From positions 7,367 to 71,366 of the forward strand of contig PMYE01000174.1 of assembly GCA_003171315.1 (NCBI GenBank): 64,000 nucleotides of DNA. The letters run 5' to 3'. The stretch is from Acidobacteriaceae bacterium (GTDB taxonomy: Bacteria; Acidobacteriota; Terriglobia; Terriglobales; Acidobacteriaceae). The notes beneath the pieces were generated by a model. It ran no database searches, had not been told where the DNA came from, and saw nothing but the letters and a program-made list of their open reading frames with translations. Of this stretch, positions 22,429 to 45,068 are shown piece after piece (the stretch's first letter is position 1; each line of letters starts with the position of its first letter). Made by a program: the position numbers and the translations under genes.

Positions 22429-23319
22429 GTGAACGGGCTTCTTGTAATCGACAAGCCGGGCGGCATGACCAGCCACGACGTGGTGAACCGGCTGCGACGC
22501 ATTACGGGAGAGCAGTCGATTGGCCATCTGGGCACGCTGGACCCCATGGCCACCGGCGTGCTGCCGCTGCTCGTGGGTAGGTTTACCCGGCTGGCGCAGT
22601 ACTTTTCCTCAGCCGGGAAGAGCTATACCGGAGTGATCCGTTTTGGATTCTCGACCGACACCTATGACGCCGAGGGCGAGCCTGCCGGGCCTGACCAATG
22701 GCCCGAAGTTGCGGGGAAGTTGACACTGGAACGGGTGCGCGAGGCGGCTGCGCGGTTCCACGGCGAGATCGAACAGATGCCTCCGCCCTTTTCGGCCAAG
22801 AAGATCGCAGGCAAGCCCGCGTACAAGCTGGCCCGCGAGGGCAAGCCGGTGGAGCTCAAGCCGGTTCGGATCCGGATCGATGCCTTTGAGATCGTGGCGA
22901 TGGTGGGCTCCGAAGTCAGCTTCACCATCGGCATCAGCTCCGGCGGCTACGTGCGCTCGGTGGCGCACGAACTGGGCTGCGGCCTGGCCTGCGGAGCGCA
23001 CCTGAGCCGCCTGCGCCGCACGCGCGCTGGCGTTTTTACGCTGGCCGACGCACACACTCTGGAGGAACTGGAAACGCTGGCCGGAAATGTGGAGGCTCTG
23101 GAGTGCTTGTGCGTGCATCCGCGCAGCCTGTTGCCTGAGATGCCCGCGGTGACTGGCGACAGCCAGGCGCTGGGCCGGCTGCGCAACGGTGCGCAGGCCA
23201 ATCTGCCGGAGTTCTCCGCCGCCCCGTTGGTGAAGGTCTTCGCCGGGCCACGCGAGCTTGTCGGAATCGCGAAGCGGGTGGCAGGAACGCTGTTTCAGCC
23301 GGTGGTGGTGATGGGATAA
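22429..23319 (+). CDS. truB: tRNA pseudouridine(55) synthase
   Basis: LLVIDKPGGMTSHDVV and GHLGTLDPMATGVLP (catalytic Asp) motifs. GTG start. Confidence 0.92.
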   Translation: MNGLLVIDKPGGMTSHDVVNRLRRITGEQSIGHLGTLDPMATGVLPLLVGRFTRLAQYFSSAGKSYTGVIRFGFSTDTYDAEGEPAGPDQWPEVAGKLTLERVREAAARFHGEIEQMPPPFSAKKIAGKPAYKLAREGKPVELKPVRIRIDAFEIVAMVGSEVSFTIGISSGGYVRSVAHELGCGLACGAHLSRLRRTRAGVFTLADAHTLEELETLAGNVEALECLCVHPRSLLPEMPAVTGDSQALGRLRNGAQANLPEFSAAPLVKVFAGPRELVGIAKRVAGTLFQPVVVMG

Positions 23320-23477
23320 AGACAGGGAATAGGGAGTAGGGAACAGTCGCATCAGCGAAGGTGCGAGCGACAGCATCTTTGCTGTCTACGATGAGTTGAT
23401 GCGATTGATTCATGGAATAAGAGAGAGTAAATCGCCAAGCACGGCTTTCTATTCCCTATTCCCTACTCCCTGTCTTT
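23317..23477. repeat. heptamer-periodic inverted-repeat hairpin element A
   Basis: Left arm 23318-23343 contains AGGGAAT AGGGAGT AGGGAAC. Right arm 23452-23477 contains ATTCCCT ATTCCCT ACTCCCT. The two arms are reverse complements over 26 positions, with 1 mismatch and 1 wobble by hand alignment. The spacer of about 108 nt carries nested hairpins. The element begins at the truB stop codon. Confidence 0.8.
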
Positions 23478-23553
23478 CCCCTTTTCCTCACTCGCCCTCG
23501 GCCCCCACGGCTTAGACTGTTGTTTCGTTGTTTTTTGAAGGAGCAGACCCGCC

Positions 23554-23943
23554 ATGCCCTACCCGACGGAATATCGCTACACCCGCGAGCACGAATGGAT
23601 CTCGGTCGAGGGTTCCATCGGCTCCATCGGCATCACCGACTACGCGCAAAGCTCGCTGGGCGACATTGTGTATGTGGATGCGCCCAAGGTGGGCGATGCG
23701 GTGACGGCCAATGCGACCTTTGGCTCAGTGGAGAGCGTGAAGGCCGTCAGCGACCTCTATTCGCCGGCCAGCGGTACAGTGACCGCGGTGAACGAAGAGC
23801 TGAAGACCGCGCCCGACAAGATCAATCAGGACCCGCACGGCACATGGATCATCAAAGTGGAACTTTCGAACCCGGCCGAGTTGAATTCCCTGCTCGACGC
23901 CGCGGCGTATGAGGCGTTTATTGCAGAGGAAACGGAAAGCTAG
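23554..23943 (+). CDS. gcvH: glycine cleavage system protein H
   Basis: YTREHEWI start region and the lipoyl-lysine motif ESVKAVSDLYSP. RBS GAAGGAG lies upstream. Confidence 0.95.
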   Translation: MPYPTEYRYTREHEWISVEGSIGSIGITDYAQSSLGDIVYVDAPKVGDAVTANATFGSVESVKAVSDLYSPASGTVTAVNEELKTAPDKINQDPHGTWIIKVELSNPAELNSLLDAAAYEAFIAEETES

Positions 23944-24128
23944 TTGCTAGCTTCTAGCTACTTGTCGCTAGTTGCGCCTCGCAAATTTGAGTAGCATCAA
24001 ATGAGCCCGACTTTCGTCGAGCATGCCATTCCGGCTCGTACACTGGCTTTTAGCTAGGAGCTAGGAGCTAGGAGCTAGGAGCTAGAAGCTAGAAGCTAGG
24101 AGCTAGGAGCTAGAAGCTAGAGGCTACA
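23941..24128. repeat. heptamer-periodic inverted-repeat element B with a 10-copy AGCTAGR tandem array
   Basis: The left arm at 23941-23975 is TAGTTGC TAGCTTC TAGCTAC TTGTCGC TAGTTGC. The right arm at 24052-24121 is (AGCTAGG)4(AGCTAGA)2(AGCTAGG)2(AGCTAGA)2, then GGCTACA. CTAGCTTCTAGCT pairs with AGCTAGAAGCTAG. The element fills the whole gcvH-gcvPA spacer. Confidence 0.85.
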
Positions 24129-25493
24129 GTGCGCTATCTCCCAAAATCCGACGAAGAACGCCGGCAGATGCTCGCGGAGATCGGTGCGGCCACGATCGAC
24201 GATCTTTTCTCGAGTATTCCGGCCGAATACCGCCTGGCGCGCGACCTTGCCGTTCCGCGCCAGCAGGCCGAAAGCGAGATCGTTGCATACTTCCGCGCCG
24301 CCGGGCAGAAGAACGCGACCGATTACGCCAGCTTTCTGGGCGCGGGCGCGTATCTCCACTACCGGCCGGTCATCATCGACGCCCTCGTGCAGCGCGGCGA
24401 GTTTTTGACCAGCTACACGCCCTACCAGGCCGAGATTACGCAGGGAACTCTGCAAGCGATTTTTGAATTCCAGACCATGATCGCCGAGCTGACCGGCATG
24501 GACGTGGCCAACGCCAGCATGTACGACGGGTCGACCGGCGCGGCCGAAGCCGCGATGATGGCGGTCCGCGTGACCGGTCGCCACAAGGCCGTCGTTGCCT
24601 CAACCGTGCATCCCGAGTATCGCGAGGTGCTGGCCACTTACGCAAAGCATAAGGGCCTGACAACCGCTCTGGCTGGATACGACCAGGAAACCGGTCGCGT
24701 CGACTTAAAGGCGCTCGCCGCTGCGGTTTCCGCGGAAACCGCAGCTGTCCTTGTCCAGAGCCCGAACTTTTTCGGCATCATCGAAGACATTCCGGCGATT
24801 GCGGCCATCGCCCACGCCAATGGCGCGCTGCTCATCGTGTCCATTGCCGAGGCGGTCTCGCTGGGCATCGTGCGGCCGCCGGTAGAGGCCGACATTGTCG
24901 CCATGGAGGCGCAGTCGTTCGGCGTGGCGCTCTGCTATGGGGGCCCTTTCTGCGGCGTGATCGCGGCCAAAGAGCAATTTGTGCGGCAGATGCCGGGCCG
25001 GCTTGCCGGCCAGACCGTCGATGGGGCAGGGAATCGCGGCTTCGTTCTCACCCTTGCTACGCGCGAGCAGCATATCCGTCGCGAGAAGGCCACCTCGAAC
25101 ATCTGCACCAACCAGGCGCTGGTCGCGCTGATGGCGACGATCTTTATGGCCGTCTACGGCAAAGAAGGCATGCGTGAATTGGCCGAGCACAATTTGGCCA
25201 AGGCCGATTACGCGGCGAAGACACTCGGCAGCCAGCCGGGCGCAAAGCTGCGTTTCAAGGACACGTCGCTCGGGGGCGCGCCGCGCTTCCATGAATTTGT
25301 GTTGCAAACCGAGGAAGCTCCGGCGGTCTGGAGCCGGAGGCTGCTCGAAAACAAGATTGTGGGTGGCGTCGAGTTGAGCCGCTGGTATCCCGAGCTCGGC
25401 AACTGCACCCTCTGGTGCGCGACAGAAGTCGTCACGCGCGAACAGATCGAAACTGCGGCCAAAGTGCTGGCGGGCGTAGAGGTGGAGGCGTAG
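24129..25493 (+). CDS. gcvPA: glycine dehydrogenase (aminomethyl-transferring) subunit 1
   Basis: 454 aa with [15 protein letters not shown] start and [14 protein letters not shown] motif. GTG start. Confidence 0.93.
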
Positions 25494-25498
25494 CTTTT

Positions 25499-25837
25499 AT
25501 GTTCCGCGGAATCAGATGGGGCGGGAGCGAACGCGGCCGTCTACGGTGGGAGGAGGCTCGCAAAGTTGGCAAGCTTCGTTTCCTAATCGTTCACAGCTTG
25601 CTGATTCGCGGGGGTCTCTTGTTTGCCGGCGCCATCTTGTATGAGTTGTTCATTTGGCACAAACAACTCAGCCTCCACTTGATTGAGGCTGACGCGTTTG
25701 TGTGTTTTATCGGAGCACTTATTTTAGGCCTTTGGTCTTGGGACCAGAACGAGGTTATCCATCGCGCTTTTCAGATCGCTCCCATCAAGCCGGGTCAATT
25801 GGGCAGCGAGATGACCCAAAAGAGAGCTAAAGAATGA
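25499..25837 (+). CDS. small 2-TM membrane protein inserted between gcvPA and gcvPB (hypothetical)
   Basis: The ATG lies 5 nt after the gcvPA stop, with GGAGG upstream. The stop overlaps the gcvPB ATG (ATGA). Two hydrophobic helices are present (LIVHSLLIRGGLLFAGAILYELFIW and AFVCFIGALILGLWSW). G+C is visibly lower than in the flanks. Confidence 0.55.
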   Translation: MFRGIRWGGSERGRLRWEEARKVGKLRFLIVHSLLIRGGLLFAGAILYELFIWHKQLSLHLIEADAFVCFIGALILGLWSWDQNEVIHRAFQIAPIKPGQLGSEMTQKRAKE

Positions 25838-27342
25838 TTTCCGACACTGAGAAGAACGGCCCCCGCACCCTCGGCAAGGTCCGCACACACCCGACGCAGA
25901 ACGAGGCACTGCTCTTCGAGAAGTCCTCGCCGGGCAAGCGCGCCTACAAGCTGCCGCCGCTCGACGTGCCGGCTGTCAACTCCGCAAAACTGCTTGGCGC
26001 CGCGCACCGCACCACGCCGGGCCTGCTTCCCGAGCTGAGCGAGATCGAGATCATCCGCCACTTCACGCGGCTCTCTACCTGGAACTACGCCATCGATCTC
26101 GGTATGTATCCACTCGGCTCCTGCACCATGAAGTACAACCCCCGCGTGAACGAGTTTGTCGCCCGCATCGAGGGTCTGGCCGAGGCGCATCCCTACCGGC
26201 CCGAGTCGCTGTCGCAGGGCGCACTCGAAATCATCGATCTGCTCCGCCGCTGCCTGCTCGAGATCACCGGTATGGACGCCATCACGCTGCAGCCGGCCGC
26301 GGGCGCGCACGGCGAGTTCACCGGTATTCTGCTCACGCGCGCCTGGCACGAGTCGCAGGGCAACCCGCGCAGGAAAATCCTGATTCCCGACTCCGCGCAC
26401 GGCACCAACCCGGCCACGGCGGCCATCGTCGGCTACGCAGTCGAGAACCTCAAGTCGAACGCCGATGGCGGCATTGACCTCGACGCTCTCACGCGCCAGG
26501 TGGACGAGGAAACTGCGGCGCTGATGCTCACCAATCCGTCCACGCTCGGCGTCTTCGAGAGTCAGATTCATAGAATTGCCGACATTCTGCATGCCAAAGG
26601 CGCGCTGCTCTACATGGACGGCGCCAACATGAACGCGCTGGTGGGCAAGGTGCGGCCCGGCGACTTCGGCGTGGACGTGATGCACCTGAATCTGCACAAG
26701 ACCTTCTCCACGCCGCACGGCGGCGGCGGACCCGGCTCCGGCCCCGTAGCGTGCAAGGCTTTTCTGGAGCCGTTTTTGCCGACTCCGGTACTCGTCCAAA
26801 ACCAGGACGGCGCGCTGCGCTGGGACTACGACCGCCCGCAATCGGTCGGGCGCGTGCGAGCCTTCTACGGCAACACAGGAATGTTTATCCGCGCGCTGGC
26901 CTACATCCTGGCCAATGGGCCCGACGGCCTGCGCCAGACCACCGAAGACGCGGTGCTCAACGCCAACTACATCCGCAAAAAGCTCGAAGACGTGTATGAG
27001 CTGCCGTACCAAACGGCCTCGATGCACGAGGTGGTCTTCAGCGACAAGCGGCAGGCGGCGCGCGGCGTCAAGACCGGCGACATCGCCAAGCGCCTCATCG
27101 ATTACGGCTTCCATCCCTACACGGTCAGCTTCCCGCTCATTGTGCATGGCGCGCTGATGATCGAGCCCACCGAGAGCGAGTCGCGCGAGGAGCTGGACCT
27201 GTTCATTGACGCCATGCGCTCCATTGCGCGCGAAGCCGAAGAGAATCCCGACCTCGTGAAAAGCGCGCCGCACTCCACGCGCGTCTCGCGTCTCGACGAG
27301 GTGCAGGCGGCGCGAAAGCCGATCCTCCGTTGGAGGCCGTAA
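25834..27342 (+). CDS. gcvPB: glycine dehydrogenase (aminomethyl-transferring) subunit 2
   Basis: 502 aa with the PLP-lysine motif HLNLHKTFSTPHGGGGPG. Confidence 0.95.
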   Translation: MISDTEKNGPRTLGKVRTHPTQNEALLFEKSSPGKRAYKLPPLDVPAVNSAKLLGAAHRTTPGLLPELSEIEIIRHFTRLSTWNYAIDLGMYPLGSCTMKYNPRVNEFVARIEGLAEAHPYRPESLSQGALEIIDLLRRCLLEITGMDAITLQPAAGAHGEFTGILLTRAWHESQGNPRRKILIPDSAHGTNPATAAIVGYAVENLKSNADGGIDLDALTRQVDEETAALMLTNPSTLGVFESQIHRIADILHAKGALLYMDGANMNALVGKVRPGDFGVDVMHLNLHKTFSTPHGGGGPGSGPVACKAFLEPFLPTPVLVQNQDGALRWDYDRPQSVGRVRAFYGNTGMFIRALAYILANGPDGLRQTTEDAVLNANYIRKKLEDVYELPYQTASMHEVVFSDKRQAARGVKTGDIAKRLIDYGFHPYTVSFPLIVHGALMIEPTESESREELDLFIDAMRSIAREAEENPDLVKSAPHSTRVSRLDEVQAARKPILRWRP

Positions 27343-44927: not shown

Positions 44928-45043
44928 CGCATCGAGCTCTCAGCCTTCAGCTCTCAGCTTTCAGCAGGTGCCGCGAAGCTCGGAGCCGTATCGTAAATGC
45001 CAGAGGGCTAAGCTGAAAGCTGACGGCTGATTGCTGATAGCTG
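44925..45043. repeat. heptamer-periodic inverted-repeat hairpin element C
   Basis: The left arm at 44932-44965 is TCGAGCT CTCAGCC TTCAGCT CTCAGCT TTCAGC. The right arm at 45007-45043 is GCTAAGC TGAAAGC TGACGGC TGATTGC TGATAGC TG. An 11-bp perfect core CAGCTTTCAGC/GCTGAAAGCTG extends to about 30 imperfect bp, with a 46-nt loop. The element begins at the TPM gene stop. Confidence 0.8.
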
Positions 45044-45068
45044 TTTCGACGGAGGAGGGTCAAACTTT

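Follow-up and report, generated by a model that had tools for sequence, protein, structure and literature searches.

A heptamer-armed hairpin in the gcvH-gcvPA spacer of a Terracidiphilus-like acidobacterium as a probable gene-less relative of PF05635 cassettes

INTRODUCTION

The spacer between gcvH and gcvPA in a Terracidiphilus-like Acidobacteriaceae bacterium from peat holds two inverted arrays of 7-nt units, which extend from the stop codon of the one gene almost to the start codon of the other. It lies in a 64,000-nt stretch of DNA (assembly GCA_003171315.1, contig PMYE01000174.1, positions 7,367 to 71,366 of the forward strand), the whole of which was analysed and is referred to below as the window. 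The arrangement raises the question of whether the arrays serve the two genes, or constitute an element in its own right that resides between them. An earlier note on this DNA had offered four roles: a processing site, a 3' stabilizer, a structure-gated ribosome site and the empty shell of a mobile hairpin. Here, we compare the spacer with its counterparts in related genomes, and with similar arrays in other phyla, and propose that it is probably a tolerated passenger, namely, a hairpin cassette resembling the intervening sequences (IVSs) of rRNA genes, from which the open reading frame (ORF) is absent.

RESULTS

Two inverted heptamer arrays between gcvH and gcvPA

The element and the genes on either side of it are laid out as follows.

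23554..23943, + strand: gcvH (NCBIfam GcvH, E = 6e-48); its TAG stop codon, 23941-23943, opens the left array
23941..23975, + strand: left arm, pyrimidine-rich; five heptamers, TAGTTGC TAGCTTC TAGCTAC TTGTCGC TAGTTGC
23976..24051, + strand: core (loop), 76 nt, non-repetitive, with small internal hairpins and the 3' end GGCTTTT
24052..24121, + strand: right arm, purine-rich; ten heptamers, (AGCTAGG)4(AGCTAGA)2(AGCTAGG)2(AGCTAGA)2, with six AGGAG motifs
24122..24128, + strand: decayed final unit GGCTACA, directly 5' of the gcvPA GTG
24129..25493, + strand: gcvPA (NCBIfam GcvPA, E = 6e-178); the GTG start aligns with the ATG of orthologues

The limits and units of the spacer, arms and core, the overlap with the gcvH stop codon and the GTG start had all been described in the earlier note, and each of them holds. 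The left arm starts at the gcvH stop codon and the right arm stops 7 nt short of the gcvPA start; the right array (24052-24120) is reported by Tandem Repeats Finder (TRF) with period 7, 9.9 copies, 95% matches and a score of 117. The arms show 78% complementarity over 32 nt, including a perfect 13-mer; this complementarity, the six AGGAG motifs of the right arm and the closure of all six reading frames of the spacer by stop codons were likewise as the note had them. Its description of the spacer as having 'no ordinary sequence' was overstated: the arrays are periodic, but the 76-nt core is non-repetitive. GcvPB was also confirmed among the genes flanking the spacer.

The note had further drawn attention to some 15 copies of CTAG. 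We counted 14 in the spacer, out of 31 in the 64-kb window, for which ~223 are expected from base composition; outside the spacer, there are 17 copies in 63.8 kb against ~222 expected, a ~13-fold under-representation. Because CTAG is avoided across the window, the CTAG-based arm family is the more conspicuous.

In an autocorrelation scan, periodic segments were found essentially at lag 7 only, as compared with lags 4-6 and 8-11; lags 6 and 9 gave two weak matches each, none of them close to the gcvH-gcvPA spacer or to the spacers that hold E1 and E3, the two sister elements described below. The lag-7 segments correspond to the gcvH-gcvPA spacer, to these two sister elements, which the note had already placed in one family with it, and to one coding segment, 27039-27068; the family is also conserved in relatives. 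The coding segment lies inside gcvPB, where the stretch CAGCGACAAGCGGCAGGCGGCGCGCGGC is kept in the gcvPB of relatives, and it is coding sequence rather than an element.

Occupancy and turnover of the spacer in relatives

One genome per species was scanned, yielding 80 relatives whose GcvPA proteins are 68-91% identical and the closest of which are named Terracidiphilus or Acidobacteriaceae (individual loci are given by their L numbers). A Terracidiphilus-like clade was defined on the GcvPA tree, comprising 50 loci with the window included, and 28 spacers formed the outgroup. A strong period-7 array is present in the gcvH-gcvPA spacer of 32 of the 50 clade species and in none of the 28 outgroup spacers; a few further clade spacers have period-8 arrays. 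The median spacer measures 144 nt in the clade, as against 66 nt in the outgroup, and the clade layout does not vary: between the stop codon and the start codon lie an array, a core of 45-110 nt and an inverted array. Unit number differs between species, from about 3 to 10, with 10 units in the right arm of the window and 3-6 in those of relatives. The unit family also varies between species, and the families, listed below, are intermingled on the tree.

CTAGCTN / AGCTAGR: the window and ~13 species
CAGTGAT / ACTGATC: L018, L023, L029 and others
AGTGAAG-type octamers: L010, L016, L024
CAGGGAW / WTCCCTG: L033, L051
AGCTGAA: L015, L036, L037
AGGGACT / AGTCCCT: L017 and others

NAACTGA-type arrays stand 5' of gcvPA in L042, L029 and L023. 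Between L060, with AGGGACT arms, and L021, with AGCTAG arms, the whole spacer has been swapped: the flanking genes are 95-98% identical, and the difference is complete and confined to the interval that runs from the stop of gcvH to the start of gcvPA. Import by homologous recombination was considered for this swap and rejected, as the 95-98% identity of the flanks extends as far as the stop and start codons, with no trace of an imported flank. In five clade species, the element has been lost, or reduced to one arm, and the gcv genes are intact: L053 has a spacer of 9 nt, L047 a 43-nt footprint with one half-unit left of each arm, and L039 and L044 short spacers, while L013 keeps a single arm. 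Given the swaps, and clean losses with intact gcv genes, the element is dispensable and turns over faster than the surrounding genes. Insertion sequence (IS) genes near the L087 and L089 cassettes are unrelated neighbours.

ORF-less elements of the AGCTAG type also occur elsewhere in the genomes of relatives, in iscS-iscU, in a sigma/anti-sigma spacer and downstream of gcvPB; arms of this type were seen at six or more other loci, but the cores are unrelated, and unit families vary by locus.

Folded alone, the gcvH-gcvPA element reaches -83.3 kcal/mol, with z = -2.1 relative to shuffles. This is marginal, because AGCUAG is self-complementary and the shuffles fold well too; the recurrence of the arrangement in orthologous spacers of many species is the stronger evidence that the arms are paired.

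A PF05635 gene at the same site

In six relatives (L017, L026, L030, L035, L041 and L056), the spacer has a gene at its centre: gcvH is followed by (AGGGACT)n, an ORF of 125 aa, (AGTCCCT)n and gcvPA. The product matches PF05635 (23S_rRNA_IVP; E = 5e-38), as well as TIGR02436 ('four helix bundle protein') and, weakly, Avd models. S23p is the PF05635 four-helix-bundle protein that is encoded in 23S rRNA IVSs, and is related to Avd, a protein of diversity-generating retroelements. A Shine-Dalgarno sequence of its own precedes the ORF, the final residues of which, KSLVPSP*, are encoded by the right array. Its closest database homologues (P0051, P0079 and P0093; 78-90% identical) also reside in the gcvH-gcvPA gap on other contigs. 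Between species, the nonsynonymous divergence (dN) of S23p is 0.11-0.22, while the synonymous divergence (dS) is saturated, which indicates that the protein is under purifying selection. Moreover, decay of the gene can be followed in L027 (E = 1.8e-5) and L060 (E = 0.033), where the C-terminal part only is detected between arms of the AGGGACT family, using a custom hidden Markov model (HMM) built from 80 S23p sequences and run on the six-frame peptides of 88 ORF-less spacers.

The 76-nt core in the window contains neither an ORF nor an S23p remnant at the level of Pfam at E <= 10 or of the custom HMM on six-frame peptides, and there is no PF05635/S23p gene anywhere in the 64-kb window. The core is alignable only with close relatives such as L008. 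A core motif, TCTCCCGGC / GGCTTTT, was tried as a shared feature and set aside, as the search matched mostly coding sequence and was uninformative. At the gathering threshold, Rfam returned only a tRNA on the window and no family for the elements, so that the Rfam check suggested in the earlier note turned up no known motif.

PF05635 genes and inverted 7/8-nt arrays across phyla

A tblastn search against plasmids gave 38 PF05635 records, mostly from Nostocales, and ten of these loci, from Cyanobacteria, Gemmatimonadota, Alphaproteobacteria and Bacteroidota, were inspected. All ten genes are flanked by arrays on both sides (seven with period 7, three with period 8), seven of the cassettes are clearly inverted, and the coding regions are free of such arrays. 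In a metagenome sample of 80 PF05635 homologues (44-76% identity), for which the near flank was taken as 170 nt, arrays of period 7 or 8 were distributed as follows.

Upstream, within 170 nt: 56 of 77 loci
Downstream, within 170 nt: 53 of 75 loci
Both sides: 43 of 72 loci
Control, within the coding sequence: 1 of 80 loci
Control, distal flank on the upstream side: 5 of 73 loci
Control, distal flank on the downstream side: 4 of 65 loci

Of the periods from 4 to 12, only 7 and 8 were found adjoining the metagenomic genes. All 43 two-sided cassettes are inverted, and the purine-richer arm lies 5' of the ORF in 33 cassettes and 3' in 5 (p = 4e-6). This is a bias only: a universal polarity rule, whereby the purine-rich arm always stands upstream of the next start, was discarded, since it holds in just 33 of 38 and the AGCTAG-type cassettes are opposite relative to the S23p ORF. 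Inverted 7- or 8-nt arrays on both sides of PF05635 genes are a rule that extends across phyla, and applies to operon spacers as well as to rRNA. In a full-text search, which did not extend to subscription papers, so that a prior description is possible, we found no literature on this general association, or on heptamer-armed hairpins in Acidobacteria.

Arm families of the window recur around genes. In L153, the order is sucC, CTAGCTN arm, S23p, AGCTAGR arm, sucD, with the polarity of the window element; additionally, L117 carries a gene between AGCTAG arms, L118 between AGCTGAA arms, the E3 type, and L113 between GGGAATA/GGGAGTA arms, the E1 type. Arms next to stop and start codons are also seen in L153, L098 and L102. 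With PF05635 cargo at the same site in relatives, decay intermediates, clean losses and the gene-bearing cassettes L153 and L117, the empty shell is the best fit among the four roles proposed for the spacer.

Units of 8 nt, for example, AGTGAAGN, CCTGCCCT and GGAGATAA, occur in L010, L016 and L024, in L097, L101 and L102, and in 11-13 of the 80 metagenome loci; no cassettes with 6- or 9-nt units were found. If the period is not divisible by three, a unit-borne stop (TAG, or TGA in several other families) falls in all three frames within three units, and we conjecture that this may be why 7 and 8 are tolerated.

Among the plasmid loci, L100 (Azospirillum lipoferum plasmid AZO_p2) has an unannotated PF05635 ORF inside a 23S rRNA gene and is a true IVS; its inverted arms are GGACAGA-type heptamers, which resemble the GACAGAT repeats of the Coxiella IVS. 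L095 (Nostoc PCC 7120) and L096 (Stanieria), from two cyanobacterial orders, carry ACTTCAAACTT repeats ahead of the ATG and, past the stop codon, CTTCTGC/CCTCTGC arrays; since the two share near-identical cassette features, gene and arrays travel together. On the L098 (Pseudanabaena) and L102 (Picosynechococcus) plasmids, genes for four-helix-bundle proteins with 7/8-mer arrays lie within clustered regularly interspaced short palindromic repeats (CRISPR)-cas operons, in the cas6/cas4 and cas10/cmr3 gaps; the L098 arrays are direct, (AGCTAAA) x ~17 upstream and (AGCCAAA) x ~10 downstream.

Sister elements and neighbouring genes

The other members of the family in the window, and the gene upstream of the first of them, are given below.

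22429..23319, + strand: truB (TIGR00431, E = 1e-62), upstream of E1 and gcvH
23318..23477, + strand: sister element E1, in the truB-gcvH spacer; arms 23318-23346 (GGGAATA/GGGAGTA units) and 23449-23477, with a 102-nt core
44935..45046, + strand: sister element E3, between a TPM-domain-like gene (end 44927) and lemA (start 45069); CTCTCAG-type/GCTGAAA-type arms

The arms of E1 are 29 nt long and 90% complementary, and orthologues of E1 are present in L007 and L013. Its predicted fold (-84.8 kcal/mol, z = -8.9) is far more convincing than that of the gcvH-gcvPA element. The only Rfam match at a permissive E-value, a sub-threshold one of 23303-23493 to the plant MIR408 precursor, on both strands (33 bits against a gathering score of 64), is spurious and due to chance, because both are long GGGA-rich hairpins. 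An S23p-like C-terminus (VYDELMRLIHGIRESK) seen by eye in the E1 core is not supported by Pfam or the custom HMM. E3 is followed by a separate Shine-Dalgarno sequence, GGAGGAGGG.

Further along the operon, the gcvPA-gcvPB gap (25499-25837) holds an ORF of ~112 aa, lower in GC, that has hydrophobic stretches and for which no Pfam match is on record. In relatives, this gap contains an IS200-type Y1 transposase (L089) or is of another length, and because its content and length differ in this way, it constitutes a second variable site of the operon.

DISCUSSION

Interpretation of the spacer

We consider it probable that the gcvH-gcvPA spacer is an ORF-less, dispensable, IVS-like hairpin cassette, a passenger whose right arm has been co-opted for the initiation of gcvPA. 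The proposal is built on what is observed of its architecture, its orthologous occupancy across the clade, its turnover and dispensability, its gene-bearing counterparts and the cross-phylum link to PF05635. The class to which it would belong consists of cassettes bounded by inverted arrays of 7-nt, sometimes 8-nt, units, the outer ends of which coincide with stop and start codons or fall within a few tens of nt of them; the core of a full cassette is a PF05635 gene of ~120 aa, and that of an empty one measures 45-110 nt. In the Terracidiphilus-like lineage, the site has long been occupied, its occupant turning over through whole-spacer swaps, expansion and contraction of the arrays, decay of the ORF and clean loss.

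A scan found no promoter or terminator consensus within the spacers, and no terminator-like site in 23300-24200; the role of 3' stabilizer or terminator is without support. As there are no internal signals, and the gap lies between co-directional genes, the element is most likely transcribed within the gcvH-gcvPA message. In the RNA, the arms would pair as an imperfect duplex, predicted at 25-32 bp, which would be long enough for RNase III. A cut by this enzyme would separate the gcvH and gcvPA messages, and such processing is plausible by analogy with rRNA IVSs and the hmw leader of Haemophilus influenzae (see below).

The right arm is probably the ribosome-binding region of gcvPA, and is the better supported of the functional parts. 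Among 13 species of the AGCTAG type, pairwise identity is 0.86 for the right arm, a value that may be somewhat inflated as repeats align well in any register, and 0.64, 0.62 and 0.55 for the left arm, the core and the third codon positions of gcvPA, respectively. In the window, AGAGG, formed by AGA and the start of GGCTACA, stands 5 nt before the gcvPA GTG and is likely to be its Shine-Dalgarno sequence, and relatives keep one G-rich unit (AGGAG, AGAGG or GGAGG) 13-15 nt ahead of the ATG. The suggestion in the earlier note that the ribosome-binding region lies inside the repeat is, thus, probably right. The purine-rich arm would, on this account, have been co-opted for translation initiation, the element itself being a tolerated passenger rather than an essential regulator. 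In L018, L023, L040 and L083, a small conserved hairpin, GGTCCC-GGA-GGGACC, lies between the right arm and gcvPA (GATCCC-GGA-GGGATC in L041); its loop displays a GGAGG Shine-Dalgarno sequence, and it is found in cassettes with a pyrimidine-rich right arm.

Several observations weigh against our interpretation, including the possible inflation of the right-arm identity. No target-site duplication is present at the boundaries of swaps or losses, and no transposase or integrase was seen with the element. An S23p remnant is absent from 86 of the 88 ORF-less spacers, the three window elements included, and the two positives are the controls L027 and L060; with no remnant, the window is linked to S23p by architecture, arm family and position, and not by core homology. 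In the 80 genome loci of relatives (1.5 Mb), there are ~30 ORF-less hairpins against 7 full S23p genes and 2 remnants, and because the ORF-less forms so far outnumber the others, most of the hairpins may be an independent repeat class that S23p merely inhabits. In the sense-strand stems of the gcv-region elements, G.U and A.C mismatches are equal in number (33 of each), so there is no sign of compensatory maintenance at the RNA level. The predicted accessibility of the Shine-Dalgarno sequence is independent of the left arm, being 0.43 for the wild type and no higher (0.33) once that arm is shuffled or deleted, because the right array, with its AGCUAG units, pairs with itself; the structure-gated ribosome site of the earlier note is, likewise, not supported in silico.

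The empty elements could, in consequence, be derivatives of gene-bearing cassettes, or could form a repeat class of their own that houses S23p genes; they share architecture, positions and arm families, which does not imply descent. We do not count the spacer as a full member of the class, but as a derivative or relative that lacks the ORF, because its core is without a PF05635 gene, though the same site in relatives has one.

A broader proposal is that hairpins with 7/8-nt arrays form one widespread selfish or processing class that spans phyla, in which PF05635 is the element's own protein and recognizes its cognate arrays; such cassettes would colonize gaps that are transcribed and tolerant of structure, namely, 23S rRNA helices, operon spacers and CRISPR-cas operons, would be exchanged from stop to start codon, and would leave ORF-less derivatives that explain STRRs (short tandemly repeated repetitive sequences), other heptamer repeats and the three elements of the window. 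We put this forward tentatively, and regard it as possible but on the whole doubtful. Three puzzles would perhaps then be facets of one: the rRNA IVSs and their S23p ORFs, the common bacterial heptamers (STRR, TAACTGA) and the role of PF05635 outside diversity-generating retroelements. The gcvH-gcvPA spacer of Terracidiphilus provides a natural comparison set in this respect, as it includes full, decayed and empty cassettes, cases of loss, and swaps between genomes that are nearly identical. For annotation, spacers of this kind should be recognized as elements, and not as assembly artefacts or CRISPR-like repeats.

Alternative explanations

The alternative that survives best is a cis-regulatory RNA, selected by the host, which sets the gcvH:gcvPA ratio via RNase III, differential stability or a standby array of Shine-Dalgarno-like motifs. 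The right arm abuts the start codon, its conservation exceeds that of synonymous sites, the G-rich unit is kept at the distances given above, the spacer is occupied in 32 of 50 clade species, and the plus strand folds better than the minus strand by 15 kcal/mol (-83 against -68 kcal/mol), a sense-strand advantage seen in this element only; a functional precedent also exists in the hmw leader (PMC12721329). However, a tuned regulator should not tolerate the interchange of unrelated arm families and gene-bearing cassettes at its site, and five of the 50 species (L053, L047, L039, L044 and L013) have lost the element cleanly, or nearly so, with gcv intact. Moreover, the same architecture is found in unrelated operons (iscS-iscU, sucC-sucD and cas) and in rRNA, the left arm shows little conservation, and no gating of the ribosome-binding site is seen in silico. 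We judge this explanation unlikely.

The arrays might instead be putative platforms for a protein that binds 7-nt units, with one monomer per unit (an S23p-type oligomer, supplied in cis or in trans, or a protein with a cold-shock/oligonucleotide-binding (OB) fold), the hairpin being secondary. Each PF05635 lineage keeps its own unit, and the AGGGACT arms are kept across lineages in which the synonymous sites of S23p are saturated, just as Nostoc and Stanieria share both gene and units. The strict period of 7 or 8, in which a 5-nt core is conserved and one or two positions vary, also resembles a spaced binding site, and CspB is a case of one protein per unit on heptamer repeats (cited in PMC4679880). 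All 43 two-sided cassettes are inverted, however, which points to pairing and not to mere unit recognition; there is no S23p gene within the 64-kb window and no cognate protein known for AGCTAG units. The platform is, in our estimation, rather improbable.

Less credible still is a phase-variable contingency repeat, in which slippage in heptamer number tunes or switches gcvPA within populations, as heptamer repeats do at the H. influenzae hmw locus (PMC12721329). The 10 units of the right arm in the window, against 3-6 in relatives, and the strain-dependent heptamer number of Coxiella (PMC4990558) would be in keeping with this, but the near-clonal population of the window is uniform. An identical GcvH protein is encoded on 23 contigs of peat and permafrost metagenomes. 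Six of these contigs were retrieved, as independent assemblies; they are 99.8-100% identical to the window across 3.6-6.4 kb (0-8 mismatches in the flanks), and the window and all six have base-for-base the same spacer, and so no polymorphism in unit number, although short-read assemblies could hide minority variants. The slippage-prone unit number envisaged in the earlier note is, hence, a property of the comparison between species (about 3-10 units) and not of this population. Additionally, gcvPA has a housekeeping role, which sets it apart from the usual contingency loci.

Random slippage debris in a non-coding gap, devoid of element identity or function, can practically be dismissed: heptanucleotides are the commonest class of long simple sequence repeats in many bacteria (Mrazek 2007, as summarised in PMC4679880), but paired inverted arrays recur at one site clade-wide and at many other operon spacers, are tied to one gene family across phyla, and include a conserved right arm.

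Comparison with known systems

The nearest counterparts of the passenger cassette proposed here are the rRNA IVSs with an S23p ORF, as in Coxiella burnetii, Leptospira, Xanthomonas and Brucella (PMC4990558). In both, an inverted-repeat stem surrounds a PF05635 gene or, in many IVSs, nothing, and in both the ORF decays, as it has in the relatives L027 and L060. In the Coxiella IVS, the S23p ORF is preceded by tandem GACAGAT heptamers, the number of which varies among strains, and the first of these repeats is where RNase III cleaves the stem (PMC4990558). The window element, in contrast, has no ORF and is situated in an mRNA operon spacer, gcvH-gcvPA, rather than in helix 25 or 45 of 23S rRNA. 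Furthermore, the Coxiella ORF is considered to be unexpressed (PMC4990558), whereas that of the Terracidiphilus relatives comes with a Shine-Dalgarno sequence and evolves under purifying selection.

In the 5' untranslated region of the hmw genes of H. influenzae, (ATCTTTC)n pairs with a G-rich region, and the resulting hairpin is processed by RNase III, with a change in expression (PMC12721329). The hmw1A/hmw2A leader has in common with the window element, if the latter is transcribed as we propose, a heptamer array in the leader of the downstream gene that forms one arm of a long hairpin. The partner arm at hmw is the G-rich region, whereas the window element is periodic in both arms; the hmw locus is phase-variable with a known phenotype, and the window element shows no variation within its population.

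Mazel et al. reportedly gave, in 1990, the STRR consensus units of heterocystous cyanobacteria as CCCCAGT, TTGGTCA and CAACAGT. The cyanobacterial STRRs and Nostoc heptamers (bioRxiv 10.1101/2022.06.06.494920) share with the window element tandem heptanucleotide units (TRF period 7), and are likewise intergenic and often near start codons, with many families per genome. They are usually described as direct arrays, whereas the window has paired inverted arms that fill a spacer from stop to start; phylum and units are also different, the window units being AGCTAGR/CTAGCTN in Acidobacteriaceae. Nostocales also account for most of the plasmid-borne PF05635 genes, which have arrays of this kind on either side. 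We found no literature linking STRRs to PF05635 genes.

Repetitive extragenic palindromic (REP) sequences, bacterial interspersed mosaic elements (BIMEs) and Correia elements are dispersed, intergenic and hairpin-forming, are co-transcribed with operons, and are polymorphic for presence or absence among strains; the Correia elements, of Neisseria, are RNase III substrates. Families of the REP and Correia type have a conserved consensus and defined terminal inverted repeats or target-site duplications. In the class of the window element, by contrast with REPs and miniature inverted-repeat transposable elements, the arms are tandem 7-mers that differ by locus, and neither a target duplication nor a transposase partner was found.

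The TAACTGA repeats of marine Beggiatoaceae are intergenic arrays of 2-6 units that end a few nt before a start codon, the unit containing stop triplets, as in the window (PMC4679880). They differ in that 169 sets are direct and only 1 is inverted, in that one unit dominates genome-wide, and in that no enclosed gene has been reported (PMC4679880).

Judged by sequence, the window element appears to share working parts with each of these systems and to depart from the features that define each as a family. It joins known kinds, namely, heptamer repeats and IVS hairpins, and is not a new category; the wider link between rRNA IVSs, PF05635 and bacterial heptamer repeats is a more interesting result than the spacer itself.

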